Shown: in pieces, positions 1,870-25,183 of the stretch
How the letters are laid out: every line of letters starts with the position of its first letter
Position numbering within the stretch: position 1 is the first letter of the stretch
Source: a bacterium
Lineage (GTDB): Bacteria; Patescibacteriota; Dojkabacteria; SC72
Assembly: GCA_021463465.1 (NCBI GenBank)
Contig: JAJTYH010000002.1
Location: 73,799-137,798, forward strand
Reading direction: 5' to 3'
Length of the DNA: 64,000 nt
Notes under the pieces: generated by a model
What the model saw: the letters and a program-made list of their open reading frames with translations, nothing else
Told to the model about the DNA's origin: nothing
Database searches by the model: none
Program-made: the position numbers and the translations under genes

Positions 1870-3150
1870 GTGAAAACCATGAATAAAAATCAGATTAATA
1901 TAATAGACTTGTTCGCTGGAGTAGGTGGCTTCAGAGTCGCTTTCCAAAAAGCCAACAAGAATCTCAAAGGAGAAATTTTCAAAGTAGTTTGGGGTAACCA
2001 GTGGGAGCCAGGAAAAAAAGTACAATATGCGGCTGAAATATATAAACGACAGTTTGGAGAAGCAGGATTTGTTAATGAAGATATCGCTAAAGTAAAAACA
2101 GAAGATATTCCAAATCACGATTTAATGGTAGGAGGTTTCCCATGCCAAGACTATTCAGTCGCAACAACAAAGAAACTTTCGGGAGGAATTGAAGGGAAAA
2201 AAGGAGTTCTCTGGTGGCAAATAGAAAGAATAATTAGAGAGAAGGGTAAAGATAGTCCAGAGTTTTTACTTTTCGAGAATGTAGATAGACTAATCAGCTC
2301 ACCTGCCAAACAAAGAGGAAGAGATTTTGCAATAATGCTTGCGTGTCTTGATATGCTTGGATATATGGTTGAATGGAGAGTTATAGATGCAAGTGAATAC
2401 GGATTTCCGCAAAGAAGAAAAAGAATATATTTTGTAGGATATAAAAAGAATTCCAAAATATATAAATCTTTTAAAGGTAATCATGAAGACTGGTTACTAA
2501 ATACAGGAACTTTCGCGAAAGGATTCCCTTCAAAAAGGAAGGAAGGGACAGTAACGGTTATAGAGTTAATAAAAGATAGAACTAAGGAATACTCAAAAGT
2601 CATTAAAGACGTAAGTGACAATTTCAACAAAGGTGGCAAGACAACACCTTTCAGAAAAACAGGAGTGATTCTTGACGGTAAAATCTATACGATGGATGTA
2701 ATACCAAACTACAAAGGAAAGAAAACCACGCTTGGCGATATACTTATAGACGAAAAAGATGTCCCTCAAGAATACTTCATACCAAAGGAAGATTTAGAGA
2801 AGTGGAAATATCTTAAGGGAGCCAAAAGAGAAAAGAGAATCCAGAAAGCAACAGGCTTTGAATATAATTACAGTGAAGGAGCTATAACCTATCCAGATGC
2901 ATTAGAAAGGCCATCAAGGACAATTATTACGGGAGAGGGAGGCAAAGGCCCATCTAGGTTCAAACATGTAGTTAAAACACTTTCTGGAAGACTAAGACGA
3001 CTTACACCAATGGAACTTGAAAGATTGGACATGTTCCCAGATAATCATACCGACGGTTATTCACCTCAAACTAGAGCATTCTTAATGGGAAATGCTTTAG
3101 TGGTTGGTGTAATTCAAAAAATTGCAGAATCACTTTATGAGAAAATGTAA
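1870..3150 (+). CDS. DNA (cytosine-5)-methyltransferase
   Basis: Motif I IDLFAGVGGFRVAF (FxGxGG), motif IV GGFPCQDYS (PCQ), motif VI ENV (FENVDRL); 426 aa. Confidence 0.9.
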   Translation: MKTMNKNQINIIDLFAGVGGFRVAFQKANKNLKGEIFKVVWGNQWEPGKKVQYAAEIYKRQFGEAGFVNEDIAKVKTEDIPNHDLMVGGFPCQDYSVATTKKLSGGIEGKKGVLWWQIERIIREKGKDSPEFLLFENVDRLISSPAKQRGRDFAIMLACLDMLGYMVEWRVIDASEYGFPQRRKRIYFVGYKKNSKIYKSFKGNHEDWLLNTGTFAKGFPSKRKEGTVTVIELIKDRTKEYSKVIKDVSDNFNKGGKTTPFRKTGVILDGKIYTMDVIPNYKGKKTTLGDILIDEKDVPQEYFIPKEDLEKWKYLKGAKREKRIQKATGFEYNYSEGAITYPDALERPSRTIITGEGGKGPSRFKHVVKTLSGRLRRLTPMELERLDMFPDNHTDGYSPQTRAFLMGNALVVGVIQKIAESLYEKM

Positions 3151-4489
3151 ATTTGGGGAGTATGACGAAAAGTCAAAAGAATCAATCTTTAAGTATGCGA
3201 CTTTACTAAAAGATAAATCACTTCTAGATTTATATCCTGAAGAAATAAAAAAACTTCCAGAGAAATCAACGGACTATAAAGGGAAAGGGGATATTGGAAC
3301 TATGGTCGAGTATCTACATTTCAATTACCAACCCAATAGCAATGCGGAACCAGATTTTAAAGATGCTAATCTTGAACTAAAAACAACTCCATTAAAAGTA
3401 TCAAACTAAAAATATGTTTCGAAGGAAAGGCTTGTTTTAGGTATGATTGACTATTTCCAAATAACAAAAGAGCAGTTTGAAAAATCTTCATTCCTAAAAA
3501 AGAATGCTTCCTTACTATTACTTTTTTATCTTTATGAGAAAGGACAAGACCTAGCTCAAATCTTCAAACTTATTAAATTGTGGGATATACCACAGTCTGA
3601 CCTTAAGATTATTAAACAGGATTGGACAACGATTTACACCAAGATAAAGAGCGGATTAGCACATGAACTATCTGGCGGTGATACATTATACCTTGAGGCA
3701 GCCAGAAAAGGAGCAGGAGGCGATAAAGATTTCACAAGACAGCCATATTCAAATGAAAAAGCAAAACGACGAGCATTTGCATTTAAGAGTAAGTATGTAA
3801 ACCAAATTATTGACTCTGATAAGGACTTCATTTCTGCTATTGATGATACATTCGAACTGTCAAAACAAACTTTTGAAGAGTATGTCATTGAGAAATTTAA
3901 ACCATTTGTCGGAATGTCTATAAATGAGATATCTGATAAATTTGGACTTAGTTACTCAGCAAAGAAAAAAGATATTGTTGCAGCAATTTCGAGAGCAATT
4001 TTGGGAGTTCCAGAACAAAGTAGAATAGCAGAGTTTGAAAAAGCGGATATTCTAATGAAGACAGTTACTCTTGAGAATAACGGAACACTAAAGGAGAGTA
4101 TGTCATTCCAAAGGATTGATTACTATGAAATAGTGAATGAAGAAGAGTGGGAGGAATCTGCTTTCTACCAAAGAGTTATAAATAGAAAGTTCTTCCTTGT
4201 AGTATTTAAAAAGGACGAGAAAGGAACTAAGCGACTATTTAAAGTAATGTTCTGGAGCATGCCAGAGAGATTAAGACAGCTAGCAGAACAGTATTGGAAC
4301 GATGTAAAAGAGAAAACCGAAGCAGGCGATATGGAAAACTTTTGGAAATTAAAAGACAAGAAAGGTTTTCATGTAAGACCAAAAGCACGAGATTCAAAGG
4401 ATACGACAACATTAAGGGATGGTACTGCGGCTCCAAAGTTAGGTTACTGGATTAACTCGGAAGAGATTAAGAAAGTAATATTAGGCTAA
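3122..4489 (+). pseudogene. Sau3AI/MutH-like PD-(D/E)xK restriction endonuclease interrupted by in-frame TAA (3407..3409); ORFs 3122..3409 and 3443..4489 are in the same frame
   Basis: N-terminal fragment carries EPDFKD...NLELKTTPL (PD...ELK catalytic motif as in MutH/Sau3AI ELKT); second ORF continues in identical frame after a single TAA; sits immediately downstream of C5-MTase. Confidence 0.5.
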
Positions 4490-4620
4490 TGGGACAGTGG
4501 AGGAAGGAAGCAAAGGCGGGACTAAACAATTTTTAAGGGTATACCTACCTTACGGATACATATATTTATTTCTACGTACTTTAGAGGTAAAATCAGGAAT
4601 TGACATAATAGTTTCTTTTA

Positions 4621-5385
4621 ATGGTTAAAACAGAATTAATTAAGATAGTTTATTTTGATGAATCGTCTGCAATCGACTATTTGGAAATTTCAAACAAAGG
4701 GAGGCAAATAAGCGAAAAAACAACAGCATCAAGTAAACAGGGGAAAATAGGAGCGACGGCTGGCGCGAGTATTGGAACGAATAGTTTACTTACAAAGATA
4801 ATCAGCCCACTCCTGAGTCTAGATGTAAGTGCGGAAAGTTCCACTAAACTGGCCATGATTGGAGAATCTGTAGTAAAAACATCAATATCTAATACCCTTC
4901 TATCCGATTATATCGAGAAAGCTGAAAAAGATCGCCGATTAACAATCCTCACTGATTATACAATTTCCACAACAACAGAATCTTTTTCCTACATTAAAAT
5001 GGCTGCTCCTTATTTCAAATTATTTAATCTACCTGAAAGTAAGATTAATATTGATGCGCTAGATCAAATATTAGAAGCCGGGAAAGGATACTACGAGTTA
5101 GTGGCAAACAATATTTCTCAAAACGATACAAAAATACTTAGATTTAATATTCGGGCATTCAGAAATAACTATCATCTAGTTGACCTCACAAAGATGAAAA
5201 TTAAGATATACGGTGTCAAAGTAGGGGAAGCGACTTTAGAATCAGTAAAAGCTGGTCAAGAGTTTAATGTTGCTCCAGCCGAAGTCCCAACATTAGCTGA
5301 CATCGTAAATGGTGAGAATCAATCATCAAAAGCATTCGACCTAATAGATGTTGTACTTGTTGGTGTAAGCCATGGAGAAAATTAA
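4621..5385 (+). CDS. hypothetical protein, upstream partner of Clp-like ATPase (overlaps it by 14 nt)
   Basis: 254-aa ORF translationally coupled to 5372..6505; no recognisable motif. Confidence 0.5.
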   Translation: MVKTELIKIVYFDESSAIDYLEISNKGRQISEKTTASSKQGKIGATAGASIGTNSLLTKIISPLLSLDVSAESSTKLAMIGESVVKTSISNTLLSDYIEKAEKDRRLTILTDYTISTTTESFSYIKMAAPYFKLFNLPESKINIDALDQILEAGKGYYELVANNISQNDTKILRFNIRAFRNNYHLVDLTKMKIKIYGVKVGEATLESVKAGQEFNVAPAEVPTLADIVNGENQSSKAFDLIDVVLVGVSHGEN

Positions 5386-6505
5386 AACAATAAAAATTTA
5401 TATTGGCTCCAAGGGTGGATTTACTGAATTCGTAAAAAAACATCTTGGTGAAAGTCCATACAAAGATCTTACAGGGCTACTATACATTCATGACGCGTAC
5501 TCTCGAACAATTACCGTTAAACAAGATAATAGCGATGATAAAACAGACATATCTCACCAAATTCCAACCTTTAATAACCTGGTAATAAATGCTGATGAAT
5601 ATAGTGGTGTTAATGAGCTGCTTTTGTTTAATATTGAGCGTTACATAGAGCTATTTCAAATCGAAACTCTCATAGTTCATAATCCCCCAAAGCTCTTAGA
5701 AAGCAATTTAAGGAGGGCCTATAAAGAGAAGATAGAGACTGAAACTCAAAAATATAAGGAATTTAGCAGTCGAGATTTAACTAAATTGTTATCTCGTTTG
5801 AAAGACGCTGTATTAGGTCAAGAAACCGCAATTCAAAAACTTGTTACTTCAATTTATACACTTACCAGAGATAAGGAAGCCACCAAACCAATAGTATTAC
5901 TCCTTTACGGCCCTTCTGGAGTTGGGAAAACAGAATCCGCTAAAATAATTGCGGACTCATTGGGTGAAAACCTTTTCAGAAAGCAGCTTTCTATGTTTCA
6001 GAACAGCGAATTTATTACTTACTTATTTGGCGGGAAACATTATGAGAAAAGCCTTGCCAGAGATCTTGTTGAAAGAGAAAGCAACGTTATTCTTTTAGAT
6101 GAATTCGACAAGGCTAACCTGGTAGCTCATTCTGCGTTCTATCAGCTATTTGACGAAGGTGTTTTTGAGGATAAGAATTATAACGTAAACTTAACACGAT
6201 CGATAATACTATGTACATCAAACTTTACTAGTACAGAGACAATCCGAAAAGAGTTAGGTGAGCCAATTTTCTCTAGATTCGATGGTCACATTGAATACAA
6301 GCCACTTGATTCTGCATCAATGAAACTGATAATAGAAAAAATAATTGATGAGGAGTTACTAAAAATCAAAGATAATGATTATGAGAAAACGGAAATTTTA
6401 AGTATGTTTGAGCCCTATCTAACAAAACTGTCAAATGCAAGACTTGCTAAAAATTTAGTCAGAGAATACTTTTCGACCGAACTTTTCAAAAAAATAACTT
6501 CATAA
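5372..6505 (+). CDS. AAA+ ATPase, ClpA/ClpB D2-domain-like
   Basis: Walker A LLLYGPSGVGKTESAKIIA, sensor/Walker B region ILLDEFDKANLVAHSAFYQLFDEG resembling Clp D2 LLDEIEKAH...LLQVLDDG; 377 aa, no N-domain or D1. Confidence 0.7.
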   Translation: MEKIKTIKIYIGSKGGFTEFVKKHLGESPYKDLTGLLYIHDAYSRTITVKQDNSDDKTDISHQIPTFNNLVINADEYSGVNELLLFNIERYIELFQIETLIVHNPPKLLESNLRRAYKEKIETETQKYKEFSSRDLTKLLSRLKDAVLGQETAIQKLVTSIYTLTRDKEATKPIVLLLYGPSGVGKTESAKIIADSLGENLFRKQLSMFQNSEFITYLFGGKHYEKSLARDLVERESNVILLDEFDKANLVAHSAFYQLFDEGVFEDKNYNVNLTRSIILCTSNFTSTETIRKELGEPIFSRFDGHIEYKPLDSASMKLIIEKIIDEELLKIKDNDYEKTEILSMFEPYLTKLSNARLAKNLVREYFSTELFKKITS

Positions 6506-6521: not shown

Positions 6522-7517
6522 CTAAGAGGCAATGGGCAGGGATTCGCCTTCTTCATGAACATAAAGAGATCTTACAGAGAGGTATTCTAAGTAAATCTCA
6601 TTATTTATCAGTGAGATATTTTTCTTAATTAATGAATCATAAAATGCTTTAATATCAGGATCATCACCAATACTATGAACCTGATCATTCTCAATATAAG
6701 CTTTCAATAAAGTATTTAATTGTGTGGATGTGAATTCTTCAATAGCTGAAAGCCTCGCGACGCATTCGTGGGTATATTTGAACATTCCCGAAAGTCTCAA
6801 ATTTTCAATAAGAAAGTCTTTCTCAAGCTCAGCGGCTAGTTTTACATCAGGGTAATGAGCCCTGAAGAAATCAGATATTCTAGAATAAAAATGTATCTCC
6901 GATTTCTTATCACGATTCCATTCGTTTAACAGGTACTGTGAGAAGCCTACGGTCTTAACAGGAGATAGATAATCCCCATCTTCGGTAATAAAGTACAAAT
7001 CCTGATTCGCAGGAACACCTTCCTTTAACGCTTCCCAGTTAACAGCATCACCATACGAGCCATTTTTACCGGGCGGATTGCCTAGTTTTACACGAATTTG
7101 AGCTCTATGATATATGTTATTATTTGTAGGAATTACCTTTGAGACTTTGAATAACTCCTTGATTATTGAATCTGCGTTGAAACCATTTGTCTTTACCTTC
7201 TCATATGTCTCGTTTAAAACTTCATTCTGGGCTTCCTCATACTGTTTAACGGAATCTTTTAACTTTTTGTAAAGCATTGGATTTTCACGACATATCTGGG
7301 GAAACCTTTTCGGTATTGGATTGCTTACCCAAGTTTTCAATGAATCTGCAATTTTCTCTTCACGATTACGATTGAACTCGTCAATAACCTGATTTGGAAC
7401 AAATAGTGTCATCTTCCGATTCTTGATTGCAACTATTAGTTTTTTCAATTCCTCCAAATCTTCATCACTATAATGAAAGAATGTAAGATAAACGTTTGTA
7501 TCTATAAATATATTCAT
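6522..7517 (-). CDS. PIN-like N-terminal domain protein
   Basis: N-terminus MNIFIDTNVYL...DEF resembles PIN-domain acidic core; 331 aa with uncharacterised C-terminal region. Confidence 0.4.
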   Translation of the reverse strand: MNIFIDTNVYLTFFHYSDEDLEELKKLIVAIKNRKMTLFVPNQVIDEFNRNREEKIADSLKTWVSNPIPKRFPQICRENPMLYKKLKDSVKQYEEAQNEVLNETYEKVKTNGFNADSIIKELFKVSKVIPTNNNIYHRAQIRVKLGNPPGKNGSYGDAVNWEALKEGVPANQDLYFITEDGDYLSPVKTVGFSQYLLNEWNRDKKSEIHFYSRISDFFRAHYPDVKLAAELEKDFLIENLRLSGMFKYTHECVARLSAIEEFTSTQLNTLLKAYIENDQVHSIGDDPDIKAFYDSLIKKNISLINNEIYLEYLSVRSLYVHEEGESLPIAS

Positions 7518-7556: not shown

Positions 7557-7710
7557 CGCATTACCTAAACCTAGTAATAGGCATGGTGATAAAAATTGAA
7601 TCCACGACGAATAACGCGGCTCTCCGGCCGGTCCATTCGTCGTGGTCTATATCTCGAAAGGGATATGGGGGTTCCGAAAGGAACTCGCTGGTTCGGAGGG
7701 CCACTTTTGT
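7557..7710 (+). ncRNA. structured leader/ncRNA, copy 1 (three GNRA-tetraloop hairpins plus 11-bp stem); homolog of 21740..21890 on minus strand
   Basis: Promoter TTAACA(7523-7528)-17nt-TATAAT(7546-7551); hairpins CCTA-GTAA-TAGG, CCACGACGAAT/ATTCGTCGTGG (7602-7612/7635-7645), ATATCTC-GAAA-GGGATAT (7649-7666), GGTTCC-GAAA-GGAACT (7670-7685), tail CGCTGGTTCGGAGGGCCAC; same architecture with compensatory changes in second copy. Confidence 0.6.
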
Positions 7711-7743
7711 TATACCTCCAGAGATAAAATAAATCAGATAAAC

Positions 7744-8448
7744 ATGCAAAAGTATACAGTTACAACTCTAAAAGAGGAGCTAGTAAAAATAATAATTGAA
7801 ACACCGTTACAAGAGGTGTATTGGGAAACAATCGGCTATTCAGAAAGACCTAAACCAGGATCGCTTATCTCAGATTTATTCAAGCTATTAGTAGGTAAAA
7901 AGTCTCTCAGGGAGCAGAAACTTTACAACTTCATTTTCCTTGAACTCATCATTTTAGCCATCTTTGATATCGCAGTCTGGTTTGAGAAAAGAAACCGTGA
8001 CTATCTATTTAACGCAGTTTTTATAGCGATTCTAGTCACCGAAATATCATCGATCATGTCACAAGATCAATTAAGAGGTTCTTTCTTTAAAGGCATCCGT
8101 GAGGCTATTGAATACATATCATTAGGGTTTAACAGCTATAAGCACAACGATCCTATAAATGCGTTTAGCAAACGTCTAGAAAATATACAAAGCGAATCAG
8201 AAGCTTCAGATCAAAAGATAGAAAGTATTCGAAATGGCTTTAAAAACTTATTTCAAACACCCACAACACTTAGTGGAAAAAGTCTTTTGCTAAGCTACCC
8301 TGATTTGGATGCCCACTTCTTTAAATATTATGAGAAAGAACAGTTTGATTTATCAAATGACAGCCCTACAGAGAACCCGATAGGAAAGGGGTTCAATCGT
8401 GATGATCTGAAATTCGCTACAGAAATGCTATTTTATAAGAAGAAATAA
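7744..8448 (+). CDS. membrane protein (2 predicted TM helices); ORF-track start 7642 lies inside the upstream structured RNA, ATG 7744 preferred
   Basis: Hydrophobic segments LYNFIFLELIILAIFDIAVWF and LFNAVFIAILVTEISSIM; ATG at 7744 directly after RNA element. Confidence 0.5.
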   Translation: MQKYTVTTLKEELVKIIIETPLQEVYWETIGYSERPKPGSLISDLFKLLVGKKSLREQKLYNFIFLELIILAIFDIAVWFEKRNRDYLFNAVFIAILVTEISSIMSQDQLRGSFFKGIREAIEYISLGFNSYKHNDPINAFSKRLENIQSESEASDQKIESIRNGFKNLFQTPTTLSGKSLLLSYPDLDAHFFKYYEKEQFDLSNDSPTENPIGKGFNRDDLKFATEMLFYKKK

Positions 8449-8464: not shown

Positions 8465-9403
8465 ATGAAATCAAAAATAGTGGGTTCAATATTTGCTCAC
8501 GCCAGTGGAGATTACCTTGGTATGCCCGTTGAATTTGCTTCTACACCCGCACAGGTACAGGATTTCTTCGGTAGTGAAGGCATAAGACCTATTGATACTA
8601 ATAGCAGGGGAACGAAACCAGCTGGTTACTATACTGATGACACGGCTATGATGCTGTGTTTAGCCCAGAGTCTCATAGACAAAGGATTCGATACCTTAGA
8701 TCAATTCCAGAAATATAAGAAGTGGGCTTTTGAAGGATATATGTCTGCTGATGGAAAGACTTCTTTTGGAATAGGACAGAATACATTAAGGAAACTAATG
8801 TGGCAGAAGCCGGAAGAAATACCTACAGCAATTCATAGCAACGATAAAGAAGGTGGAAACGGAGCATTAATGAGATGCCTTCCTATTGGACTCATATACC
8901 ATAACAATACTGATGATGTAGTTGATAAGAGTATAAAATCAGCACTTGTTACGCACAACAATACCATTGCGGTTTGGACTACAGTTGTATTCAATACACT
9001 CATAACATACTGCCTGCATAATATTGAGAAAGAGGGGTTTGTATCAAAACTCGCAACAGAGCCCTACTATAAAAATATCCCCGCTGAAATAAAGAAAGTG
9101 CTGGATAGACTAGGTAATCTAAAAACGGAGGAGCTCAAGACCAGTGGATACTCACTTAATACCTTGGAGGTCGCTCTGCATTCATTTTTCAGCTCTGATA
9201 GTCTGGAAGCTGCTATCAAGGCATCAATTGGTTTTGGAGGCGATACAGATACTCAAGGGGCGGTCACAGGAGGTCTTGCTGGAGCATATTACGGTTATGA
9301 AGCAATTCCAAAAGAATGGACAGCTCACTTATTAAATAAAGAATTGATGCAAGAGATCTCAGATAAGATAGCCTCGATATCACTTAGCACACCTAATACA
9401 TAG
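8465..9403 (+). CDS. ADP-ribosylglycohydrolase family protein
   Basis: N-terminal GSIFAHASGDYLGMPVEF and GYYTDDTAMMLCLAQSL motifs characteristic of ARH/DraG family; 312 aa. Confidence 0.75.
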   Translation: MKSKIVGSIFAHASGDYLGMPVEFASTPAQVQDFFGSEGIRPIDTNSRGTKPAGYYTDDTAMMLCLAQSLIDKGFDTLDQFQKYKKWAFEGYMSADGKTSFGIGQNTLRKLMWQKPEEIPTAIHSNDKEGGNGALMRCLPIGLIYHNNTDDVVDKSIKSALVTHNNTIAVWTTVVFNTLITYCLHNIEKEGFVSKLATEPYYKNIPAEIKKVLDRLGNLKTEELKTSGYSLNTLEVALHSFFSSDSLEAAIKASIGFGGDTDTQGAVTGGLAGAYYGYEAIPKEWTAHLLNKELMQEISDKIASISLSTPNT

Positions 9404-11208: not shown

Positions 11209-11463
11209 ATGAAGAATCATAAGATATCAGATACATTTTTAGCAGCCACATTGGTCGCATTAGGGATATCAATAGCAGACATTGATAGAACCAATCCTCA
11301 GAGGTGCATATTCCTTTTTGAAAGTTCCGAATTAGTAGATCAGTACATTCAGCAGTACTTGCTAAATCAACTGAAGGTAAATCCTGCAACACTCTTGCAG
11401 TCTTACAAATACGTTTTATCTCAGTTACACGACAACAGACCTGATGACTTCTTCAATAGATAA
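11209..11463 (+). CDS. hypothetical small protein
   Basis: 84-aa ORF upstream of primase; followed by a second short ORF (11444..11581) in +1 frame. Confidence 0.35.
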   Translation: MKNHKISDTFLAATLVALGISIADIDRTNPQRCIFLFESSELVDQYIQQYLLNQLKVNPATLLQSYKYVLSQLHDNRPDDFFNR

Positions 11464-11599
11464 ACTTAAAGCTCTAATTAGGAAATACTACGGAAAGGAG
11501 GTAACAGACTATGAAGCTGAAGAGATAAGGAAAAAGTTAATTAAGCTAGTCAGACTAGCATACTTAAAGAATGTTAAATAATTTTTAAATATTGATTAT

Positions 11600-13681
11600 A
11601 TGAATAACATCAAAGAATTACTGCAAAAGCACAACATCACAATCAAAAGAGAAGTCGGACATGAACTCATGGTTGATTGTCTCTTCAATAGCTGCGACGA
11701 AGATAGCAGACAGAATGAAGCACATCTTTATATAAATTCACAGACCGGTGCATTTGATTGTAAAAAATGCGGAACAAAAGGAGGTTTCAAAGAATTACTA
11801 GGAATACTTGGGGAAACTGAAAAAACCGAGCAGTCCAATCAGTACTCCCCATATAATTATAGTAAATACGAAGAAAAATTAACACAGGAAGACATTAACT
11901 ACCTGATCAACAAAAGAGGATTAACAATTGAGACTATCAAGAACCATCATATCGGTGTTGCGAACTTCTATAAATCACGATGGCTAACAATCCCATACTT
12001 TGATGAGCAGGGTATATATAAAGAGGCATACAAGCTTCGCACTACTGTAGAAAATTATTCTCCCAAGTATAAAGTCTATCCGATTGGTGCACACATGACA
12101 CTATACGGGCTTGATAAACTCAACAAAGATTTAGACTACGTAATTATATCTGAAGGGGAGTTTGATTGTATGCTTCTACATCAGGAAGGCATGAATGCAG
12201 TCAGTGTCGGAACGGGTGCAGCTACCTTCAAAGATGAATGGTTTGAAGCACTTACTCCATACAAGAAAGTATATATTTGCTTTGATAATGATGAGGCAGG
12301 TCGGAAAGGAACAGAACAGTTAAGGACAAAACTTAGTTTCAAATGTCCAGACAAACGAATATTCAGAATAAACTTTGATTCTAAATATAAAGATATAACT
12401 GAACTTCATGTAGCTGGAGGGTCAATTGAGGATGCGTTCGCAAATGCAGAAGAAATGGAAACATATGCAACGCCTAGAAATGAGATGTCCATCCAAGAAC
12501 TACAAGGCATCCTTGATGCAACAATCAAAGAGGACGATGTAAACAAGGTCGTAACATTCCTCGCAATGCTAACGATGTATACCAAGGATTCCCAGCTGAA
12601 TTTGATGTATTCAGCACCATCGTCAACAGGAAAAAGCTACATACCGATTGAAGTATCAAAGCTATTCCCAGAAGAAGATCTTATTCAATTGGCTTATGTT
12701 TCTCCGACTGCCTTTTTTCACGATCAAGGGGAGTATGATGAAAGTAAGAATCAAATAGTAATGGACTTTCATGGAAAGGCTATAATATTTCTTGATCAAC
12801 CAAATTCTATACTCCTTGAGCGATTAAGACCGATTCTCTCTCATGATAAAGAGGAAGTACTAATCAAAATTACTGATAAGAACTTAAAAGGTGGGAATAA
12901 GACCAAGAATGTTTTGATGAAAGGATTTCCAGCAGTGATATTCTGTACAGCGAATACCAATACTAATGAACAAGAATTAACAAGAGTATTGCTCCTCAGT
13001 CCAGAAACGACACAAGAGAAAATCAAGTTTGGTATTAAAAACAGAATATTACTAGAAAGTGATAGGGAAGCCTACTACGATAAGATAGAAGCTAATATTG
13101 AAAGACAGGAGCTGAAAAAGCGAATCAAAGCTATCAAATATTCAAATATTAATCATGTGAAGGTGAACAACTGGCATGAGATATATGAAGAGTACATTGA
13201 GTCTGAACAGGTACTCAAACCAAGGCATCAACGAGATTCAGGAAAGCTTATTCAATTAATTGTTTCGTTGGCACTACTCAATCAATGGAACAGGAAGAGA
13301 ATTGATGATAAGACAATTGAAGCCTCTGAACAGGATGTTAAACAGGCTCTAGTACTCTGGAAAGAGATATCGTTAGCTCAAGACCTTGAAATACCACCAT
13401 ATGTCTTAAGTTTCCTTTACCAAGTCGTTGGACCAACAGCAATTGAACATAGTAAAAATCCAATCGTAGATGATATCGTACTAGGCAAAAGACTACTTAT
13501 AAAGCTCTATAGAGAAATTTACAAAGTGATCGTTAGCCCTAAGGAACTTCATAACAAATATATGGCTCCACTTGTAAATGCAGGAATTTTTGAAGAAATT
13601 CAGGGGTATTCGGATGGTCGTGAAAAAGATTATCTATTAACAGAGTTTGGGCTAGAAAAAATAAATATTAAGCAAGGGTAG
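11600..13681 (+). CDS. DNA primase/helicase of mobile element (CHC2 zinc finger + Toprim + P-loop NTPase; P4-alpha-like)
   Basis: CDEDSRQNEAHLYINSQTGAFDCKKCG zinc-binding motif; Toprim VIISEGEFDCMLL...ICFDNDEAGRKG; P-loop SAPSSTGKSY; 693 aa. Confidence 0.8.
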   Translation: MNNIKELLQKHNITIKREVGHELMVDCLFNSCDEDSRQNEAHLYINSQTGAFDCKKCGTKGGFKELLGILGETEKTEQSNQYSPYNYSKYEEKLTQEDINYLINKRGLTIETIKNHHIGVANFYKSRWLTIPYFDEQGIYKEAYKLRTTVENYSPKYKVYPIGAHMTLYGLDKLNKDLDYVIISEGEFDCMLLHQEGMNAVSVGTGAATFKDEWFEALTPYKKVYICFDNDEAGRKGTEQLRTKLSFKCPDKRIFRINFDSKYKDITELHVAGGSIEDAFANAEEMETYATPRNEMSIQELQGILDATIKEDDVNKVVTFLAMLTMYTKDSQLNLMYSAPSSTGKSYIPIEVSKLFPEEDLIQLAYVSPTAFFHDQGEYDESKNQIVMDFHGKAIIFLDQPNSILLERLRPILSHDKEEVLIKITDKNLKGGNKTKNVLMKGFPAVIFCTANTNTNEQELTRVLLLSPETTQEKIKFGIKNRILLESDREAYYDKIEANIERQELKKRIKAIKYSNINHVKVNNWHEIYEEYIESEQVLKPRHQRDSGKLIQLIVSLALLNQWNRKRIDDKTIEASEQDVKQALVLWKEISLAQDLEIPPYVLSFLYQVVGPTAIEHSKNPIVDDIVLGKRLLIKLYREIYKVIVSPKELHNKYMAPLVNAGIFEEIQGYSDGREKDYLLTEFGLEKINIKQG

Positions 13682-13751
13682 GGTAACCAAAAAAGTTTAC
13701 AAGAGTTTGTAGACAGGTTATTATGAAGTGCTTACCTAACAATACAATACT

Positions 13752-13830
13752 CGAGACGAAAAGGGAGTCCAGTTCCAATGCTACGTCTCGTAGTTGTTGG
13801 GTAAGCACTGGGCTCCCTTTTGTTATTTAA
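13752..13830 (+). terminator. putative rho-independent terminator / nested inverted repeats downstream of primase gene
   Basis: AAAAGGGAGTCCAG (13759-13772) pairs with CACTGGGCTCCCTTTT (13806-13821) followed by TTTTGTTATTT; additional 7-bp IR CGAGACG/CGTCTCG (13752-13758/13784-13790). Confidence 0.45.
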
Positions 13831-13847
13831 ATTAACAATAACTAGCG

Positions 13848-15458
13848 ATGGAACTAAAAAGAAAAGCTTCCAAATATATTCTTTATGCACGTAAATCAAC
13901 TGAAGGAGAAGACCGACAACAGGCTTCTATAGAATCTCAAATTGCTGAAATGCAAAAGATCGCTTTGGAATACGGTTTGAATATTGTAGAAGTCCTTTCG
14001 GAAAGCCGATCCGGATATAAACTTGGAAGACCTGAATTTCAACGCATGATAGGTATGCTTGATAATGGAGAAGCAGATGGAATTCTTTGTTGGAAACTTT
14101 CAAGATTGTCTAGAAATGCCGATGATGGAGGGAGGATAATAGGAATGTTGCAGAGAGGAGAAATAAAGCATATCAAGACTTACGATGGTGGTTGGTATCC
14201 CGAAGATGACCACATGATGATATTCCTAGAGTTAGGTATAAACAACAAGTTCAGCAAGGATCTCGGAACGGATACTAAGCGTGGTTTAAGGGCAAAAGCT
14301 GAACGAGGATGGTACCCATGCGCAACGTTACCTTTAGGGTATAAACACCATCCAGAAGAGGTTTTAAAGAAACATTCTGACATGGAGATCATACCTGATG
14401 AGCCCATGTTCAGTATAATAAAGGCCATGCTCAAAGAATTAGCGGAGAAAAAATTTTCTCCGAAGCAAGTCTTTGATCATGCTATCGCTAACGGCTTCCG
14501 CACACGTAAAGGTGGCATACCTTCTTTCTCTGTGTTCTATCGTATAGCGGAACATCCTTTCTATTATGGAGAATACAAATTCACAATTGACGGAGAGGAG
14601 CAAGTGTTTCAAGGAAAGCATAAACCAATGATAACAAGGGCTGAATACGAGTCTATACAGAAGGTTAAAGGTCGCGGTCACATTGTAAAACAGCAAAAGT
14701 ATTTCCACTCATTCACTGGACTAATGAAATGTGGAGAGTGTGGGTGTTTCATTACCGGAGATCCCACTAGACTGAAGACAAACAAGAAAGGGGAAGTTCG
14801 GAAGTTTACATACTATCATTGCACAAAAAAGAAAGGGCCATGTTCGCAACCTCATATCACACAAGAAGACCTGATAGAAACATTTGATAAAGTACTTAGC
14901 ATGATTCATATCCCCGAGGAATTAGTTGATTATGCATTAGAGGAAATACAAAAAGAGCATCAGGAGAAGAAGCTTGCAAGAATGGGTGTACTAAAGAATA
15001 ACCAAAAGGAGTATGAAGGACTAAGTAAAAAGCTAGATTTACTTACAGAGAAAAACTTAAACGGAGTGATAGATGATGAGGAATACAAAAGAAAAAGAGA
15101 TCAGATTAAATCCCATATGTCACTAGTACAATCACTAATCAACACCAATGATAGTTCAAGAGATGAATGGCTGATGAGAGTAAAGAAGAGGTTATCGTTC
15201 GCAGAAAGGGCATGTAGAACATTCAGAACAGGGTCTCCGGAGCTAAAGAAGGACATCATGATGGAGTTACAGTCTCAAATCATCGTTAAGGATAAGAGTA
15301 TAAAGCTAGATCTAGACCCATTACTAAGCCTCTTTTTCAAGAAGCCTAATCAACACGATCTTGAAAAAATATTGGTTCGAACCAAAACAAATGAAGTAGG
15401 GACAAACATATTCGAAATTTTCTTTTCCAACAATTCCATCTGGGGTGGAAGATGTTGA
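13848..15458 (+). CDS. large serine recombinase (island integrase 1)
   Basis: N-terminal resolvase domain YARKSTEGEDRQQASIESQ (catalytic Ser), recombinase domain, zinc ribbon CGECGC...C, coiled-coil; 536 aa; 3' end of gene carries tggggtggaagatg repeat of tRNA-His 3' end. Confidence 0.9.
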   Translation: MELKRKASKYILYARKSTEGEDRQQASIESQIAEMQKIALEYGLNIVEVLSESRSGYKLGRPEFQRMIGMLDNGEADGILCWKLSRLSRNADDGGRIIGMLQRGEIKHIKTYDGGWYPEDDHMMIFLELGINNKFSKDLGTDTKRGLRAKAERGWYPCATLPLGYKHHPEEVLKKHSDMEIIPDEPMFSIIKAMLKELAEKKFSPKQVFDHAIANGFRTRKGGIPSFSVFYRIAEHPFYYGEYKFTIDGEEQVFQGKHKPMITRAEYESIQKVKGRGHIVKQQKYFHSFTGLMKCGECGCFITGDPTRLKTNKKGEVRKFTYYHCTKKKGPCSQPHITQEDLIETFDKVLSMIHIPEELVDYALEEIQKEHQEKKLARMGVLKNNQKEYEGLSKKLDLLTEKNLNGVIDDEEYKRKRDQIKSHMSLVQSLINTNDSSRDEWLMRVKKRLSFAERACRTFRTGSPELKKDIMMELQSQIIVKDKSIKLDLDPLLSLFFKKPNQHDLEKILVRTKTNEVGTNIFEIFFSNNSIWGGRC

Positions 15459-16096: not shown

Positions 16097-16312
16097 TTAC
16101 TTTAAGTTCTGCCAAAATGCATAATAAGCATCATCACCTTCTTTGCCGGACATAATCATTCCGATTAATTCCATTCCAGAGACAATAGTTTGTAGACAAG
16201 GATATGCGACTCTACCGTATCTTTTCGCGGGAATCGAAAAAATTGATTTGATGTCTTCAATAAGATATTTGTCTACTTTATCAAAAAAAGCTGATAAATC
16301 TGAATTATCCAT
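16097..16312 (-). CDS. hypothetical small protein
   Basis: 71-aa ORF overlapping upstream gene by 8 nt. Confidence 0.35.
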   Translation of the reverse strand: MDNSDLSAFFDKVDKYLIEDIKSIFSIPAKRYGRVAYPCLQTIVSGMELIGMIMSGKEGDDAYYAFWQNLK

Positions 16313-17099
16313 TTTTCTTCAGTGATTTTATAAATATTATTGTCTCAACCGTAAAGAATAAAACTAATCGTGCTTCATTAAGACTAAATTCTGTTTTTTC
16401 AGCATCACTTCCTTGGTGTTTGACACCCTTGTTATTATAAAAGACAAAATTAGTTGCGAATTCTTGAATCATGGCAATAAGTCTTTCTGAAACTTGATGT
16501 GAAGCAAGATAGTTTTCTAATCTTGATTTTGCACCATCTTGCTTTGCGACATTCTTTTCTAGACTTGAATCGTAAATAGTTTCTCTTAAAGCATTTTCAA
16601 AAGCTAGCCGAGAATCATCAATAACATTTCTTAAATATTTGCCTTCGGACAGTTTATCGTAAGCGGAAATAATTAGTTCTTCAACATTCTTCACATCTTT
16701 TAAAAGGGGGAGGGAAGTAGATAGTCTCTCCTTATCAATTGTTTGTTCGCTTTCCTCTTGGACTGCCTTTTTGAAACTTTCTAACCATCTACTAACCTGA
16801 TAGAAACTCTGTTTTAAGTATTCAGGGTCAATATGGTCAGAGACCACATCACCCGGCCTTGGCACGTGATGCCATACTGTTGGCATACCTGGAATCCCAT
16901 GCCCTTTTTCAAGGATAAGATTCAAAATTTCGTTATCGTCACCAATCAATACTTCTAGATTTGATACAAACTCTTGTGTTTCATCCTTTAATCTTTTCAA
17001 GTGTTCCTCTTTTACGACATTATTATTTATTAGCTTCTGATATCTAAGAAGCTTGCTATCGAATATATTAATTTCTTTACTTATATCTCCTATCACCAT
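16305..17099 (-). CDS. hypothetical protein (NTase operon component)
   Basis: 264-aa ORF, tightly packed downstream of 2TM protein; no recognised domain. Confidence 0.5.
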   Translation of the reverse strand: MVIGDISKEINIFDSKLLRYQKLINNNVVKEEHLKRLKDETQEFVSNLEVLIGDDNEILNLILEKGHGIPGMPTVWHHVPRPGDVVSDHIDPEYLKQSFYQVSRWLESFKKAVQEESEQTIDKERLSTSLPLLKDVKNVEELIISAYDKLSEGKYLRNVIDDSRLAFENALRETIYDSSLEKNVAKQDGAKSRLENYLASHQVSERLIAMIQEFATNFVFYNNKGVKHQGSDAEKTEFSLNEARLVLFFTVETIIFIKSLKKNG

Positions 17100-17107
17100 A
17101 AGTATAA

Positions 17108-17719
17108 TTATTCGAAAATATCCATTATGTTAATTGTATCTTTCTCAAGCCTTTCAAATTTAATTACCCCAACAGTCCTCCTATTCTCATCATTAGTGTA
17201 ATGTCCTTCAAGCAGGTTGGAGTTTATTACTTTCAAATAACTAAAACCTTCATGCATTCCACCGTTTGTACTATTTTGTAAAGTGCTATCTTTCGGCCTA
17301 TTGATGTATTTGTACAAAAGATACCATCTACCATTTTGTTCTTGTTCCATTAAGCAAATAGTGCTATCTGAACACGAATTAGCAAACTCAGTTGAAACAA
17401 ATAATTTTAAATAATTCTGCTTGATTTCAGCAACACCTTCATACTCATTGGCACGATTATCATAGGAAGATTTCACAGTAACTTTCCATTTTCCCGAAAG
17501 ACAGGGTTTAAATCTCAGACCAAAAACATATGCAATCGTTGTAACAAACTTCGGGTAATCCAACTTCCAAAGAAAATTATTCCACAACGCAACCAGGAAG
17601 AGAATAATTACAACAACAGCCGAAGTAGGAATAACCTTATTGTCGAAAAATGAATTCACACCATGAATAATTAGGGTAATTGTAATCAAAACAGATATAG
17701 TTTTCTTATAATCATTCAT
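17108..17719 (-). CDS. 2-TM membrane effector-like protein (SLATT/Cap15-like architecture)
   Basis: Two N-terminal TM helices (VLITITLIIHGV..., AVVVIILFLVALW) followed by ~140-aa soluble domain; 6 nt downstream of nucleotidyltransferase gene. Confidence 0.5.
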   Translation of the reverse strand: MNDYKKTISVLITITLIIHGVNSFFDNKVIPTSAVVVIILFLVALWNNFLWKLDYPKFVTTIAYVFGLRFKPCLSGKWKVTVKSSYDNRANEYEGVAEIKQNYLKLFVSTEFANSCSDSTICLMEQEQNGRWYLLYKYINRPKDSTLQNSTNGGMHEGFSYLKVINSNLLEGHYTNDENRRTVGVIKFERLEKDTINIMDIFE

Positions 17720-17725
17720 CGAAGT

Positions 17726-18475
17726 TTACCTTTCAATATACTCTCCAGCTTTATTTAAATATGTTATAGCATCGTTTAAATCCCAGTTATTCGTAAATAG
17801 TGAATCTTGTTCATTTGCACACTGAAAACCACCAATACGATTAGACTTCACAGCATCAAACAAAAACTGCATTGTTACTATTGTAGAATTAAATAAATCT
17901 CCATCAAAACATGGGCTAGAACAATTGTAAATTAGATTCTCTATGAAGTATGACGGGGCTAATCCTTTCTGCAAGTCTCCAGTTTCTTCAAGTTCTCGTT
18001 TAATATTCTTGAATATCCTCACTACTTTTTTGAATACTCCATCTGTATCAATATTTTTTGACTCACAGTTTTTCAAGTGAAGTTTTGGATAATTAATTAT
18101 TTGTGTATTCTCGTCTGTATCATAGAATTTGATACCAGGAACAAAGTCTTGGTCGCTTAGTGATAGAAACCTTTTGTAGAACCGGAAAGAAAAACAAGGA
18201 ACAACATCAGCATTAACCTTTCCATAACTTTCGGGAATCCTCAAACATTTAGCATGAGGTTCAATGTTTTTAAATGTTTTTACCAAGGCTAATAACAAAG
18301 CCTCTTTATATTCTTTAAACGTAATCAAAGCATCCGAAAAAGATTGTTCATACTTAACCTTTTCCTCATCAGATAATTGCGTAATATCACGGCCAAAGAC
18401 TGACTGAAGTTCAACCACAATATCAACATCACTATTATTAGAGATGTTTGTATGGTTTGCGTATGACCCTTGCAA
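17726..18475 (-). CDS. pol-beta superfamily nucleotidyltransferase, SMODS/CD-NTase-like (true N-terminus probably extends upstream to ~18649)
   Basis: GS-x12-DVD (GSYANHTNISNNSDVDIV) and third acidic residue in NADVVPC (DhhP); in-frame upstream region encodes expected helix ...FSLSNFTYDVYLQ but lacks ATG/GTG/TTG. Confidence 0.6.
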   Translation of the reverse strand: MQGSYANHTNISNNSDVDIVVELQSVFGRDITQLSDEEKVKYEQSFSDALITFKEYKEALLLALVKTFKNIEPHAKCLRIPESYGKVNADVVPCFSFRFYKRFLSLSDQDFVPGIKFYDTDENTQIINYPKLHLKNCESKNIDTDGVFKKVVRIFKNIKRELEETGDLQKGLAPSYFIENLIYNCSSPCFDGDLFNSTIVTMQFLFDAVKSNRIGGFQCANEQDSLFTNNWDLNDAITYLNKAGEYIER

Positions 18476-18792: not shown

Positions 18793-19863
18793 ATGAGACA
18801 AGAAGGCCAATTCAAATTTATAGACTTATTTGCTGGTATAGGAGGTATTAGGATTGCATTTGAAAACGCAGGTGGTGTGTGTGTGTTTTCCAGCGAAATC
18901 AATGAAGCTTGTCAAAAGACTTATTATGCAAATTTCGGAGAGACACCACAAGGTGACATTACACTTATTAATCCCAAAGATATTCCGGACCATGATATAT
19001 TAACAGCCGGATTCCCTTGCCAGCCTTTCTCGATAAGCGGTAAAAGACTCGGTTTTGAAGATACTAGGGGAACATTGTTCTTTTATATCTTAAACATTGT
19101 TAAAACTAAAAAACCAAAAGTTGTTTTATTAGAGAACGTAAAGCATTTAGTACATCATGATAGAGGTAATACAATTAAGGTGATTCTTAGAAGCTTAGAG
19201 GAACTTGGTTACAATGTGTCATGGAAGGTTCTGAATGCGAAAGATTTTGGGCTTGCACAGAATAGAGAACGAATTGTTATTGTCGCCAGCAAAGCAAATA
19301 AGTTCAATTTCAATTTAATGCCGTCAAGAAACGAGAAAGTCTTTATTAAAGATATCTTGGAAAAAGATGGTGATTTTGAATATCTTAAACCGGAAGAATA
19401 TACAATTCTTGATGAGAAGTACTGGAAACGTCAGATTAGCGGACTTATCTTTTGTGGATACAGAAACAAGAAAATAAGACAAAATGGAGTAAGAGAAAAC
19501 ACAATACACCTCTCCAGAGTTCATAAGCAACCAAATAGAATTTATTACATAGACGGGACACACCCGACAATTCCATCTCAAGAGACATCTGGTAGATTCT
19601 GGATATACGATGGGAAAGTAGTTCGTAAACTAACAATAACAGAGTGTTTCAGATTGATGGGGTTCCCTGACGAGTATAAGAAAGTTTCTGCAACAGGTGA
19701 ATTATATAAACAAATAGGTAATTCAGTACCAATAAACTTGATAAATTCCGTAGCCAAAAGTATTGTGAATCAAGAGTTACTCAATGCAAATGATATAAAC
19801 ACAAAACATATTCCGGAACTGTCCAAACAATTGAATTTTACATCACTTAATTATGGAGAATAA
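18793..19863 (+). CDS. DNA (cytosine-5)-methyltransferase
   Basis: FAGIGGIRIAF (motif I), GFPCQPFS (motif IV), ENVKHL (motif VI); 356 aa. Confidence 0.9.
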   Translation: MRQEGQFKFIDLFAGIGGIRIAFENAGGVCVFSSEINEACQKTYYANFGETPQGDITLINPKDIPDHDILTAGFPCQPFSISGKRLGFEDTRGTLFFYILNIVKTKKPKVVLLENVKHLVHHDRGNTIKVILRSLEELGYNVSWKVLNAKDFGLAQNRERIVIVASKANKFNFNLMPSRNEKVFIKDILEKDGDFEYLKPEEYTILDEKYWKRQISGLIFCGYRNKKIRQNGVRENTIHLSRVHKQPNRIYYIDGTHPTIPSQETSGRFWIYDGKVVRKLTITECFRLMGFPDEYKKVSATGELYKQIGNSVPINLINSVAKSIVNQELLNANDINTKHIPELSKQLNFTSLNYGE

Positions 19864-20962
19864 CGATATTAGAAACTATCTCGAGGAAATTTATGGTAAA
19901 GCTGAATCGAATTATAAAAATTCAATTCTAAAAAACTATGATTCAATTGACCCAAAGATTAGGGAGTATCTGGAGTTAATAGTTTCAAGTGTGGAAGATT
20001 TTCTAGGTGTATTAAATGTAACAGTTACAAGTTTAACCTACAAATCTTTAAACCCCAATCAAGATATTCGAAACCACCAAGCACAACTTGAAAAGGGTTA
20101 CTCTGGCAGGAGTTTTGACACACGATATATTGCACCATTTCTGAAATCGAAAGGACTAAAATCTATGAAGGAGTCGGGTTGGCTTACCCGTTCCTTGGAA
20201 CAGGCATCTCCTTATACCTTGGATTACAGGGGTAAAATCAGAGACTTAAACGTTAAAGAGGCCTTTTTAAAGACTCTGCATCATGTAGAAGAGGAAAATG
20301 GAAATTCTTTACTTATGCTTGAATATCTTTTACTTCTCCTTATCAAACAGCGTGAAGACAGCAAAGTAGAAATAGAACATATTAGCAACCCTGACCTGCA
20401 GATATCAAAAATACTAGAAATGCTTAGTATTCACTTTGAACAAGCAACTTCAAATGGGAGGGCAAGATTACCCGTACTTGCAATCCACTCTATTTATCAA
20501 CTATTAGTTAATGAATTAGAAAGGTATGATGAGAAAGAGTTACAGGAACTAAGTTCGCATACATCTGCAGATTTAAGACACGGCGATATCGGAGATGTTC
20601 AAGTAAATTATGCTGATGGGACTCCCTTTGAGGCCGTTGAAGTAAAGTACGGCATAAAAATAACAGAATCACTCATAATCGATGCATACTCGAAAATTAA
20701 GCAAACAAAAGCAAAAAGATACTATATGTTATCAACGGTAGAAAGTTCCAAAAAAGAACTAGAGGAAATTATTGCAAAGATTAAAGATGAACACGGTTGC
20801 CAAATAATAGTGAATGGGCTACTAAAAACAATAGAATATTATCTTAGACTCATAAGTAATCCAGAACTTTTTGTGAACATTTACACTGACCTTGTAACAA
20901 GTGACAAGGTAATTAAAACCGAACACAAAGTTCTTTGGAAAAAACTTCTACAAAATTTGTAA
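19853..20962 (+). CDS. putative type II restriction endonuclease (PD-(D/E)xK) cognate to MTase at 18793
   Basis: Start overlaps MTase stop by 11 nt; HGDIGDV...FEAVEVKYG fits D-x(n)-(D/E)xK nuclease motif; 369 aa. Confidence 0.5.
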   Translation: MENNDIRNYLEEIYGKAESNYKNSILKNYDSIDPKIREYLELIVSSVEDFLGVLNVTVTSLTYKSLNPNQDIRNHQAQLEKGYSGRSFDTRYIAPFLKSKGLKSMKESGWLTRSLEQASPYTLDYRGKIRDLNVKEAFLKTLHHVEEENGNSLLMLEYLLLLLIKQREDSKVEIEHISNPDLQISKILEMLSIHFEQATSNGRARLPVLAIHSIYQLLVNELERYDEKELQELSSHTSADLRHGDIGDVQVNYADGTPFEAVEVKYGIKITESLIIDAYSKIKQTKAKRYYMLSTVESSKKELEEIIAKIKDEHGCQIIVNGLLKTIEYYLRLISNPELFVNIYTDLVTSDKVIKTEHKVLWKKLLQNL

Positions 20963-20968: not shown

Positions 20969-21700
20969 TTATTTAGAGAGATATTTTGCTTCAATTTTCA
21001 AAACATTTGCTGTATCCAAAAGCCCAGCAGTAATATTCAAAGTGCTATCACTAATCATTTCATTATATGTTTTAATGTTTTCCAATCTCCTTGATGGCGT
21101 ATCTCCATCTAAAAAGGATTTAGCCTCTCTGGACCAGCCTCTCCAGTTACTGCAATAGCCTATGACTTCACTATTCAATTCATCAAACTTTATATAAGCG
21201 TTTTGAGGCCACTTGTCAGTGGAAAAAGCATATTTATTGAAGTCGCACTCCCTTGCATAATCCTCGATATCAAAGACTGTTGCATAAACACTTACACCAG
21301 ATTTCCCACTCACTGACGCTTGATAATTTTTGTAATAGGTATCAAAGTTCTTAGTACCGGTTGTTACATTTTTGTAATATTTCAAGTAATCATTTTGAAT
21401 TTGTTTCTGTTCTTCAACAGTTAGTTGTTCCCACTGGGGTCTATTTATCTTCTTTGCGGAGTCTGAATTCGTCCCGCTGAAACCTGAAATTAATCCTGAA
21501 ATACCTGCAACTGCAAACATAATAACAAAGACTAAAGCGATAAGTGACATACATCCACTGTTCTTTTTAGGTTTTTCGTTATTTACCGTTGAAGGGGATG
21601 AGGAGAGAATACTTTTCTTCTCTTTATCAAACTCTTCCTGAGTAATCACTTTGTCTTTGAGGAGTTTTGAAAGCTTTTCAAGCTGTTCGGCCTTTTCCAT
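20969..21700 (-). CDS. SHOCT-domain membrane protein
   Basis: N-terminal SKLLKDKVITQEEFDKEKKSIL (SHOCT-like), single TM helix (CMSLIALVFVIMFAVAGISGLI), extracytoplasmic domain; preceded by structured RNA copy 2. Confidence 0.5.
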   Translation of the reverse strand: MEKAEQLEKLSKLLKDKVITQEEFDKEKKSILSSSPSTVNNEKPKKNSGCMSLIALVFVIMFAVAGISGLISGFSGTNSDSAKKINRPQWEQLTVEEQKQIQNDYLKYYKNVTTGTKNFDTYYKNYQASVSGKSGVSVYATVFDIEDYARECDFNKYAFSTDKWPQNAYIKFDELNSEVIGYCSNWRGWSREAKSFLDGDTPSRRLENIKTYNEMISDSTLNITAGLLDTANVLKIEAKYLSK

Positions 21701-21739
21701 AACTAGATTCTAATAATTTATCTAGCTTGGTCTAAAAGG

Positions 21740-21890
21740 CAAAGGTGGCCTCCCGAACCAAGCGATAAGTCCTTTCGAACCTATCCTGCACTCTTTCGAG
21801 TACAGACCCAAAGCACGAGTGCCGGTCAGGAGACCGCTTTTACGTGCTTTGGGTTTTATATCCATGCCTATTTCTAGGTTTAGGAGTTGT
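21740..21890 (-). ncRNA. structured leader/ncRNA, copy 2 (homolog of 7557..7710)
   Basis: On minus strand: TGTATAAT promoter (plus 21896-21901), CCTA-GAAA-TAGG, 11-bp stem CCCAAAGCACG/CGTGCTTTGGG (plus 21807-21817/21843-21853), GTACTC-GAAA-GAGTGC, AGGTTC-GAAA-GGACTT, tail CGCTTGGTTCGGGAGGCCAC; compensatory base changes relative to copy 1. Confidence 0.6.
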
Positions 21891-21972
21891 GGTCAATTAT
21901 ACAATTTTGAAATCGTATTGCATATATATTGGACGTATAAACATTGTACTCAAAACATGTTAATATTAGCTT

Positions 21973-22473: not shown

Positions 22474-22483
22474 TGCAACAATT

Positions 22484-24558: not shown

Positions 24559-24614
24559 ACCCACAACCCCCTGTGCCACAGACAGGTGCTCTAACCGATT
24601 GAGCTACATCCACC
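24537..24614 (-). tRNA. tRNA-His (GTG) with encoded G-1 and CCA
   Basis: Cloverleaf: G-1, acceptor GTGGATG/CTTCCAC, anticodon loop CTGTGGC (GUG), T-arm GTGGGTTCAAGTCCCAT, discriminator C + CCA. Confidence 0.85.
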
Positions 24615-24655
24615 ACGACACTAGGATTATAATAACAAAAAGTCACATATACAAC

Positions 24656-25138: not shown

Positions 25139-25183
25139 ATTATCTCATAGTATTTAAGATAATTAAAGATATGTTTGTCTTCA

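Follow-up and report, generated by a model that had tools for sequence, protein, structure and literature searches.

A very probable, apparently intact copy of the Dodola anti-phage gene pair in a defence island of a Candidate Phyla Radiation chromosome

Dodola is a two-gene anti-phage system, composed of DolA and the Clp-like ATPase DolB, that was reportedly first described by Millman and colleagues in 2022. Here we describe a pair of genes, dolA and dolB, found in a stretch of 64,000 nucleotides (hereafter the window; contig JAJTYH010000002.1 of assembly GCA_021463465.1, positions 73,799 to 137,798 of the forward strand) from a bacterium of the Candidate Phyla Radiation (CPR)/Patescibacteria. 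In our view it is very probable that these genes represent a complete and apparently intact copy of Dodola, organized as a single overlapping operon within a ~21-kb defence/mobility island of the chromosome. The pair is already known and does not constitute a new system. Dodola is not mentioned by name in the main text of the preprint by Millman et al., and the definition used here is taken from secondary sources, according to which Dodola consists of a DUF6414 protein and a ClpB-like protein and is active against SPP1 in B. subtilis (PMC11514479; bioRxiv 10.1101/2024.10.26.620412). Broad protection in S. thermophilus was described for Dodola present at low copy or expressed from the chromosome (bioRxiv 10.1101/2024.10.22.618286). 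In all, protection against phages is on record only for homologous pairs of other organisms, for which B. subtilis, S. thermophilus and L. cremoris served as test hosts. A hexamer has been predicted for Dodola in PMC11514479, where the names of the two proteins apparently are swapped. In the literature that could be searched, up to 2026, we found no mechanism proposed for the system, and reviews from 2026 list it as still unknown or largely uncharacterised.

An earlier note on this stretch, made from the nucleotide sequence alone, had pointed to two overlapping open reading frames (ORFs), and these are present exactly as described. The first, dolA (4621..5385, + strand), has an ATG start, ends with TAA at 5383-5385 and encodes 254 amino acids (aa); the second, dolB (5372..6505, + strand), starts with ATG at 5372-5374 and encodes 377 aa. 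They share 14 nt (5372..5385, + strand), the dolB ATG being located 11 nt ahead of the dolA stop codon, and such a layout suggests that translation of the two genes may be coupled. Upstream of dolA, 12 nt 5' of its ATG, there is a weak promoter-like site (4580..4609, + strand; TTTAGA, an 18-nt spacer and TG-CATAAT) that agrees with the consensus at 9 of 12 positions; this is a consensus match only, as such sites are not in excess in the region (15 compared with 12.3 +/- 3.7 in shuffled sequences). The product of the upstream gene, for which the note had seen no detectable homology, turned out to be a full-length member of Pfam DUF6414 (E value 6.1e-25; score 89 bits, cut-off 25), and it matches the PADLOC model of DolA at 1.1e-64, residues 4-249 of 254 being aligned with model positions 3-257 of 258. 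It belongs to no family in NCBIfam or PHROGs. The downstream protein contains the Clp/Hsp100-type domain AAA_2 of Pfam (2.1e-14) and matches the PADLOC model of DolB at 5.7e-119 (residues 6-375 of 377 on model positions 3-371 of 375). The matches to the PADLOC models for Dodola (PDLC03837 and PDLC03838) are far above chance and in both cases cover at least 97% of the protein and of the model. Because both genes match DolA and DolB over their full length and because DolA in addition belongs to DUF6414, we identify the pair as the published Dodola system. The locus displays all of its characteristic features, namely a DUF6414 DolA in a family of ~250-280 aa, a ClpB-like DolB with the family-specific N-terminal domain, adjacency on one strand with dolA first, and the ATPase residues. 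In terms of architecture (a DUF6414 protein and a ~375-aa ClpB-like AAA+ ATPase in identical order and on the same strand, encoded by overlapping genes) there is no difference from Dodola. What does differ is the host, a member of CPR/Patescibacteria, and the degree of divergence, the window pair being 31-45% identical to most relatives and 61-66% identical to the nearest ones, found in a Saccharibacteria metagenome-assembled genome (MAG).

The proposal that the two genes form a defence cassette, an ATPase plus a partner situated in an island, thus stands, whereas the novelty that it implied does not. Likewise, the ATPase is indeed unlike those of Septu, Gabija and PARIS, but its type is not outside the known families, since it is a DolB. 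We rejected Septu, Gabija and PARIS as candidates because neither protein matched any of their components in PADLOC at E <= 0.01. Somewhat closer are two other defence systems or candidates in which a related AAA+ ATPase is accompanied by a partner: IetAS, reportedly described by Gao and colleagues in 2020, and the PADLOC candidate PDC-M37. The partner of IetA is a protease. The next-best PADLOC models for the window ATPase are indeed PDC-M37B (2.7e-24) and IetA (1e-6), yet these scores are much weaker than the one for DolB and the partner in the window matches only DUF6414/DolA, so that membership in either group was rejected as well.

The AlphaFold2 (AF2) model of DolB is confident (predicted local distance difference test, pLDDT, 91.9; predicted template modelling score, pTM, 0.88) and features an N-terminal alpha/beta domain followed by the large and small AAA+ subdomains. 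The N-terminal domain (~residues 1-125; 5372..5746, + strand) is specific to the DolB family and is covered by no Pfam or NCBIfam family. Across the 45 DolB sequences on which invariance was judged, Y77 and N104-P105 of this domain are invariant and P106 nearly so. The earlier note had envisaged a unique N-terminal region of ~150 aa; there is a family-specific domain at this end, but since the profile match to Clp begins at residue ~104-130, it is shorter, ~105-125 aa. The remainder of the protein contains a complete set of AAA+ motifs. The Clp-D2-type Walker A motif LLLYGPSGVGKTESAKIIA (GPSGVGKT, G180-T187; 5909..5932, + strand) has invariant G180, G183, G185, K186 and T187. The Walker B region, ILLDEFDKA...LFDEG, includes D243-E244 (6098..6103, + strand), both invariant. 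In sensor 1 (CTSN), which aligns with TSN of Clp D2 rings, C281, T282 and N284 (the latter at 6221..6223, + strand) do not vary. The candidate arginine finger R302 (SRFD; 6275..6277, + strand) is invariant and aligns with NRLD of ClpA D2, and sensor-2 R357 (NAR; 6440..6442, + strand), invariant together with N355, aligns with GAR of the same ring. The window DolB keeps all of these residues.

The similarity of DolB to the D2 rings of ClpA, ClpB and ClpC, which had been recognized from the Walker motifs, thus extends over the AAA_2-type nucleotide-binding domain with Walker A and B, sensor 1, arginine finger and sensor-2 GAR/NAR. It is also seen with the DolB family profile, which matches the D2 rings of ClpA, ClpC, ClpE and ClpB at ~1e-26, and in Foldseek searches with the DolB model, which retrieve ClpC1, ClpA, ClpB and Skd3/CLPB at 1e-13 to 1e-15. 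However, the Clp N-domain, the D1 ring and the middle domain are absent, as had been claimed: DolB matches D2 alone, its 377 aa leave no room for the other parts, and at the N-terminus it has an alpha/beta domain of its own. Since DolB reaches only 50-76 bits with the NCBIfam Clp models, far under their cut-offs (885-1900), it should be considered a relative rather than a member of the Clp families. A comparable layout is that of the disaggregase Skd3 (human CLPB), in which one D2-like AAA+ ring also follows an unrelated N-terminal domain. It is the top phmmer match to DolB, it was retrieved by Foldseek also as 7xbk, and its hexamer provides the best single-ring structural match (7ttr_C, root-mean-square deviation 3.1 A over 282 columns). 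Skd3, in contrast to DolB, has ankyrin repeats, a GYVG pore loop and a mitochondrial location, and it has no DolA-like partner.

A first deviation from Clp proteins concerns the pore loop. At the position of the D2 pore loop, DolB has Y217-L-F219-G220-G221 (Y217, F219, G220 and G221 invariant) and a short K-H-Y loop (together 6020..6043, + strand); the loop following the conserved residues is short and poorly conserved in the family. In every HMMER alignment, be it with ClpA, ClpC or Skd3, the ppGYVG segment appears as an insertion of 5-6 residues relative to DolB. Judging from these alignments, the canonical tyrosine-containing GYVG pore loop is deleted in DolB. A second deviation is seen at L295-G296, which aligns with SIGL of ClpA: only a short LGEPIF segment is found where ClpA has the long ClpP-docking IGL loop, the IG(F/L) loop of ClpA, ClpC and ClpX. 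Both features bear on the question of whether DolA and DolB might work as an adaptor and an unfoldase. The pairing of an adaptor with a Clp protein is well established, as in MecA-ClpC and ClpS-ClpA. By analogy, and given that the D2 rings of ClpA, ClpC, ClpB and Skd3 are the closest relatives of DolB, DolA might hand a phage protein over to DolB to be threaded and unfolded as by ClpA, ClpC or ClpX and possibly passed on to host ClpP. We consider this scenario unlikely in view of the deleted pore loop and the much reduced IGL-loop region, to which it may be added that the pair has no linked ClpP gene. Because the GYVG loop is lost and only a short segment remains at the docking position, a role as remodeller or switch is more likely for DolB than that of a threading unfoldase of the classical type delivering to ClpP, as far as can be judged from its sequence.

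DolA provides fewer clues from homology. Neither its predicted fold nor its family profile led to a significant match: Foldseek searches gave a best E value of 0.7 against PDB (BrxL, TM-score 0.11) and of 0.17 against BFVD, and the best hit of the profile among PDB sequences had an E value of 1.3. The family nevertheless has well-defined conserved features. These include the motifs KIVYFDExS, KGYYEL and RFNIxAFRNNY, and family-invariant polar residues such as D13, E14, S16, D19, N176, D188 and D243; in the window copy, all 17 of the 17 family-invariant columns are kept. Another feature is a flexible loop (residues 31-80; 4711..4860, + strand) with pLDDT below 50 in the AF2 model. Ala, Gly, Ser and Thr account for 43% of its residues, compared with 26% in the remainder of the protein, and it has a nearly invariant Pro63 (LPF turn) between two arms in which polar and hydrophobic residues alternate. 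Compared with shuffled sequences, the corresponding period-2 amphipathic pattern attains a mean z of 2.0 in the family, a statistic that is based on sequences related to one another, and it is strongest at residues 45-55 and 69-73. The window DolA shows it less clearly, its value being reached in 18 of 200 shuffles. Conservation of the amphipathic pattern should therefore be seen as suggestive only.

It is nonetheless tempting to consider DolA as a latent toxin of an abortive infection system, which would insert an Ala/Gly/Ser-rich hairpin (~45-73) into the membrane, DolB restraining it or releasing it upon infection. The flexible loop with its two amphipathic arms around the proline would be compatible with such a role. 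So would the two hydrophobic helices within an 85-aa N-terminal extension of one DolA relative (P0251, 349 aa), although this is a single case that may be a gene-calling artefact due to a miscalled start. In addition, Kelleher et al. loosely grouped Dodola with abortive-infection-type systems. On the other hand, the amphipathic signal is modest, and in the DolA family we found no 19-residue stretch reaching transmembrane-level hydrophobicity (mean maximum Kyte-Doolittle value 0.97). The invariant charged and polar residues (D13, E14, D19, N176, D188 and D243) would better suit a binding or catalytic site than a pore former, and Foldseek against PDB revealed no match of the DolA fold to gasdermins or aerolysin. 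Taken together, these considerations make the toxin scenario improbable. A related and likewise improbable version starts from the lost tyrosine pore loop, on account of which DolB might not thread substrates at all. It would have DolB as an ATP-gated switch or assembly platform and DolA as an effector of a new fold, with the amphipathic hairpin (~45-73, around Pro63) released into the membrane. If true, this would amount to a gasdermin-like kill switch set off by an AAA+ ring and not by a protease.

The two genes are closely associated throughout their distribution. With a word-indexed search we obtained 47 homologues of DolA, every one a DUF6414 protein, and an exhaustive search with the DolA profile returned 604 cluster representatives at E <= 1e-3 (210 at E <= 1e-30), nearly all of which stand alone and are 240-290 aa long. 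When one genome per species was scanned, 151 loci with a DolA relative were obtained. The best 80 of them were analysed further; with two copies of the window's own locus taken in, the set comprises 82 loci. In 81 of these a DolB relative is encoded directly downstream on the same strand, which answers the question of co-occurrence posed earlier, and the lone exception ends at a contig edge 120 nt past DolA. In most loci the end of the DolA match and the start of the DolB match are no more than ~25 nt apart, larger offsets being seen only where the DolB match starts well inside the protein. The association goes as far as a single in-frame DolA-DolB fusion (P0174, 661 aa), the C-terminal part of which aligns with the window DolB over its full length at 36% identity. 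The loci are distributed over at least seven phyla, the taxa being Actinomycetota, Bacillota, Spirochaetota (Leptospira), Alphaproteobacteria (Curvivirga), Melainabacteria, CPR (the Saccharibacteria MAG) and methanogenic archaea.

The genomic context of these loci is variable. DolA relatives are present on 25 plasmids of Bacillus, Enterococcus, Listeria and lactic acid bacteria. In Listeria innocua pLIS35, for example, a "DUF6414 family protein" is followed, with a 4-nt overlap, by an "AAA family ATPase", the flanking genes encoding a recombinase and an Abi family protein. With the closest relative (the Saccharibacteria locus; 66% and 61% identity) the window has only the two genes in common, the flanks being different. 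The synteny covers these genes alone, and the borders of the island could not be defined from this comparison. The patchy spread, the plasmids and the differing flanks fit a horizontally mobile two-gene module and not a housekeeping chaperone. A housekeeping Clp-type chaperone with a dedicated adaptor and no role in phage defence would account for the AAA_2/Clp D2 homology of DolB. However, it would be difficult to reconcile with the scores far under the NCBIfam Clp cut-offs or with the recombinase and Abi genes adjoining the pair on a plasmid. It also does not agree with the position of the window pair between restriction-modification, PIN and CBASS genes, and homologous pairs are experimentally anti-phage. 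The core-genome setting that would speak against defence was not observed; instead, the pair is patchily spread and often resides on mobile elements. Nor does the upstream protein match a housekeeping Clp adaptor, as it falls into Pfam DUF6414 and into no NCBIfam family. We regard the housekeeping explanation as extremely unlikely and rejected it on account of the sub-cut-off Clp scores and the patchy, mobile context.

How Dodola might act can at present only be inferred, and we put forward the following scheme tentatively, as one possibility. DolA and DolB, made in fixed proportion by means of translational coupling, would form a complex, an idea to which we are led by the coupling itself and by the strict pairing (the near-universal adjacency, the overlap and one natural fusion). 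DolB would assemble into an ATP-hydrolysing ring, as every catalytic AAA+ residue is conserved. DolA, having no recognisable catalytic fold and a conserved flexible loop, would probably be the specificity subunit or the effector. On phage infection, ATP might then be used to remodel either DolA or a phage protein captured by DolA, and phage development would be blocked.

Several observations weigh against the reading of the window pair as Dodola or against the scheme proposed for it. The host is an uncultured CPR bacterium, in one study Dodola on a high-copy vector gave no protection (PMC11514479), nothing in PDB or BFVD resembles the predicted fold of DolA in an informative way, and the P0174 fusion may be an artefact of assembly, frameshift or gene calling. 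Also, a neighbouring gene is disrupted: the MutH/Sau3AI-type type II restriction enzyme (3122..4489), adjoined by a C5 methyltransferase (1870..3150), is interrupted by a premature stop codon (TAA, 3407-3409), and parts of the island may therefore be decaying. Could the pair itself be a non-functional remnant in a degenerating island? Besides the interrupted restriction enzyme, the CBASS cyclase, which lacks a canonical start for 58 N-terminal in-frame codons, might be taken as a sign of this. A public contig (L001) has A and not T at 3407 and encodes an intact 450-aa restriction enzyme, the sole other difference from the window over 16.5 kb being G/A at 3993. Against decay of the pair, its sequence is identical in this independent assembly. 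Moreover, all family-invariant columns are kept in both proteins. Because both ORFs are intact, being full length relative to the models, decay of the pair seems very unlikely, and an apparently intact Dodola remains by far the better description.

Overall, positions 1 to ~21,000 of the window make up the defence and mobility island, and the remainder is chromosomal. The company of the pair in the island, which includes two restriction-modification systems, is of the kind expected for mobile defence genes. Immediately downstream and convergent with dolB, with 16 nt between the stop codons, is a gene for a 331-aa PIN_12/PIN_8 protein (6522..7517, - strand), the C-terminal part of which weakly matches the PADLOC candidate PDC-S34 (5.5e-13). 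It is followed by a match to the Rfam LOOT RNA (RF03000; 7562..7686, + strand); a second match is located at 21764..21886 on the - strand, and the two score 59.8 and 71.1 bits, respectively, against a gathering score of 46.4. The first LOOT RNA lies between the PIN_12 gene and the ORF 7642..8448 and overlaps the listed start of that ORF; in the public gene call on the identical contig this gene begins at ~7744. An ADP-ribosylglycohydrolase (8465..9403, + strand; Pfam 4.8e-64) separates the defence genes from a mobility module (11209..15458, + strand) that encodes a DUF5659 protein, a 693-aa Toprim primase-like protein and a 536-aa large serine recombinase. With such a module nearby, the region around Dodola looks like a present or former integrative element.

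Further along there is a CBASS-like operon (16305..18475, - strand) composed of a cyclase (17726..18475, - strand; PADLOC Cyclase, 2.5e-74), an effector with two transmembrane segments and a Cap15 cyclic-dinucleotide receptor domain (17108..17719, - strand), and a PDC-S32-like protein (16305..17099, - strand). The cyclase is matched only from model position 47. Neither in the window nor in the public contig, which does not differ in this part, do the 58 in-frame codons upstream of it contain ATG, GTG or TTG; the gene must therefore have an unusual start or be truncated. The island also includes a second C5 cytosine methyltransferase (18793..19863, + strand; PADLOC MTase_II, 5e-117) overlapped by an ORF of 369 aa (19853..20962, + strand). 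This ORF has no PADLOC match and could encode the restriction enzyme partner of the methyltransferase. The chromosomal part (21000..64000 in general, including 32967..34433) contains genes for pyruvate kinase, RecG, TyrRS, PBP2 and MraY; the pyruvate kinase has its closest named relatives in Candidatus Dojkabacteria/WS6 (52-56% identity), and by this the host is assigned to the CPR/Patescibacteria. A defence island of this density stands out in what is probably a small CPR/Patescibacteria genome.

As a discovery, the locus carries little weight, for PADLOC or DefenseFinder would label it Dodola automatically. What our analysis documents is an intact copy of Dodola inside a dense defence island of a CPR/Patescibacteria genome. 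For the family as a whole, the new observations are that DolB keeps all ATPase motifs and at the same time is devoid of the GYVG pore loop, that neither PDB nor BFVD contains a significant match to the predicted DolA fold, and that a flexible loop with a high content of Ala, Gly and Ser is conserved in DolA. The strict pairing together with the fusion, the pore-loop deletion and the DolA loop point to specific mutants for working out how Dodola functions.

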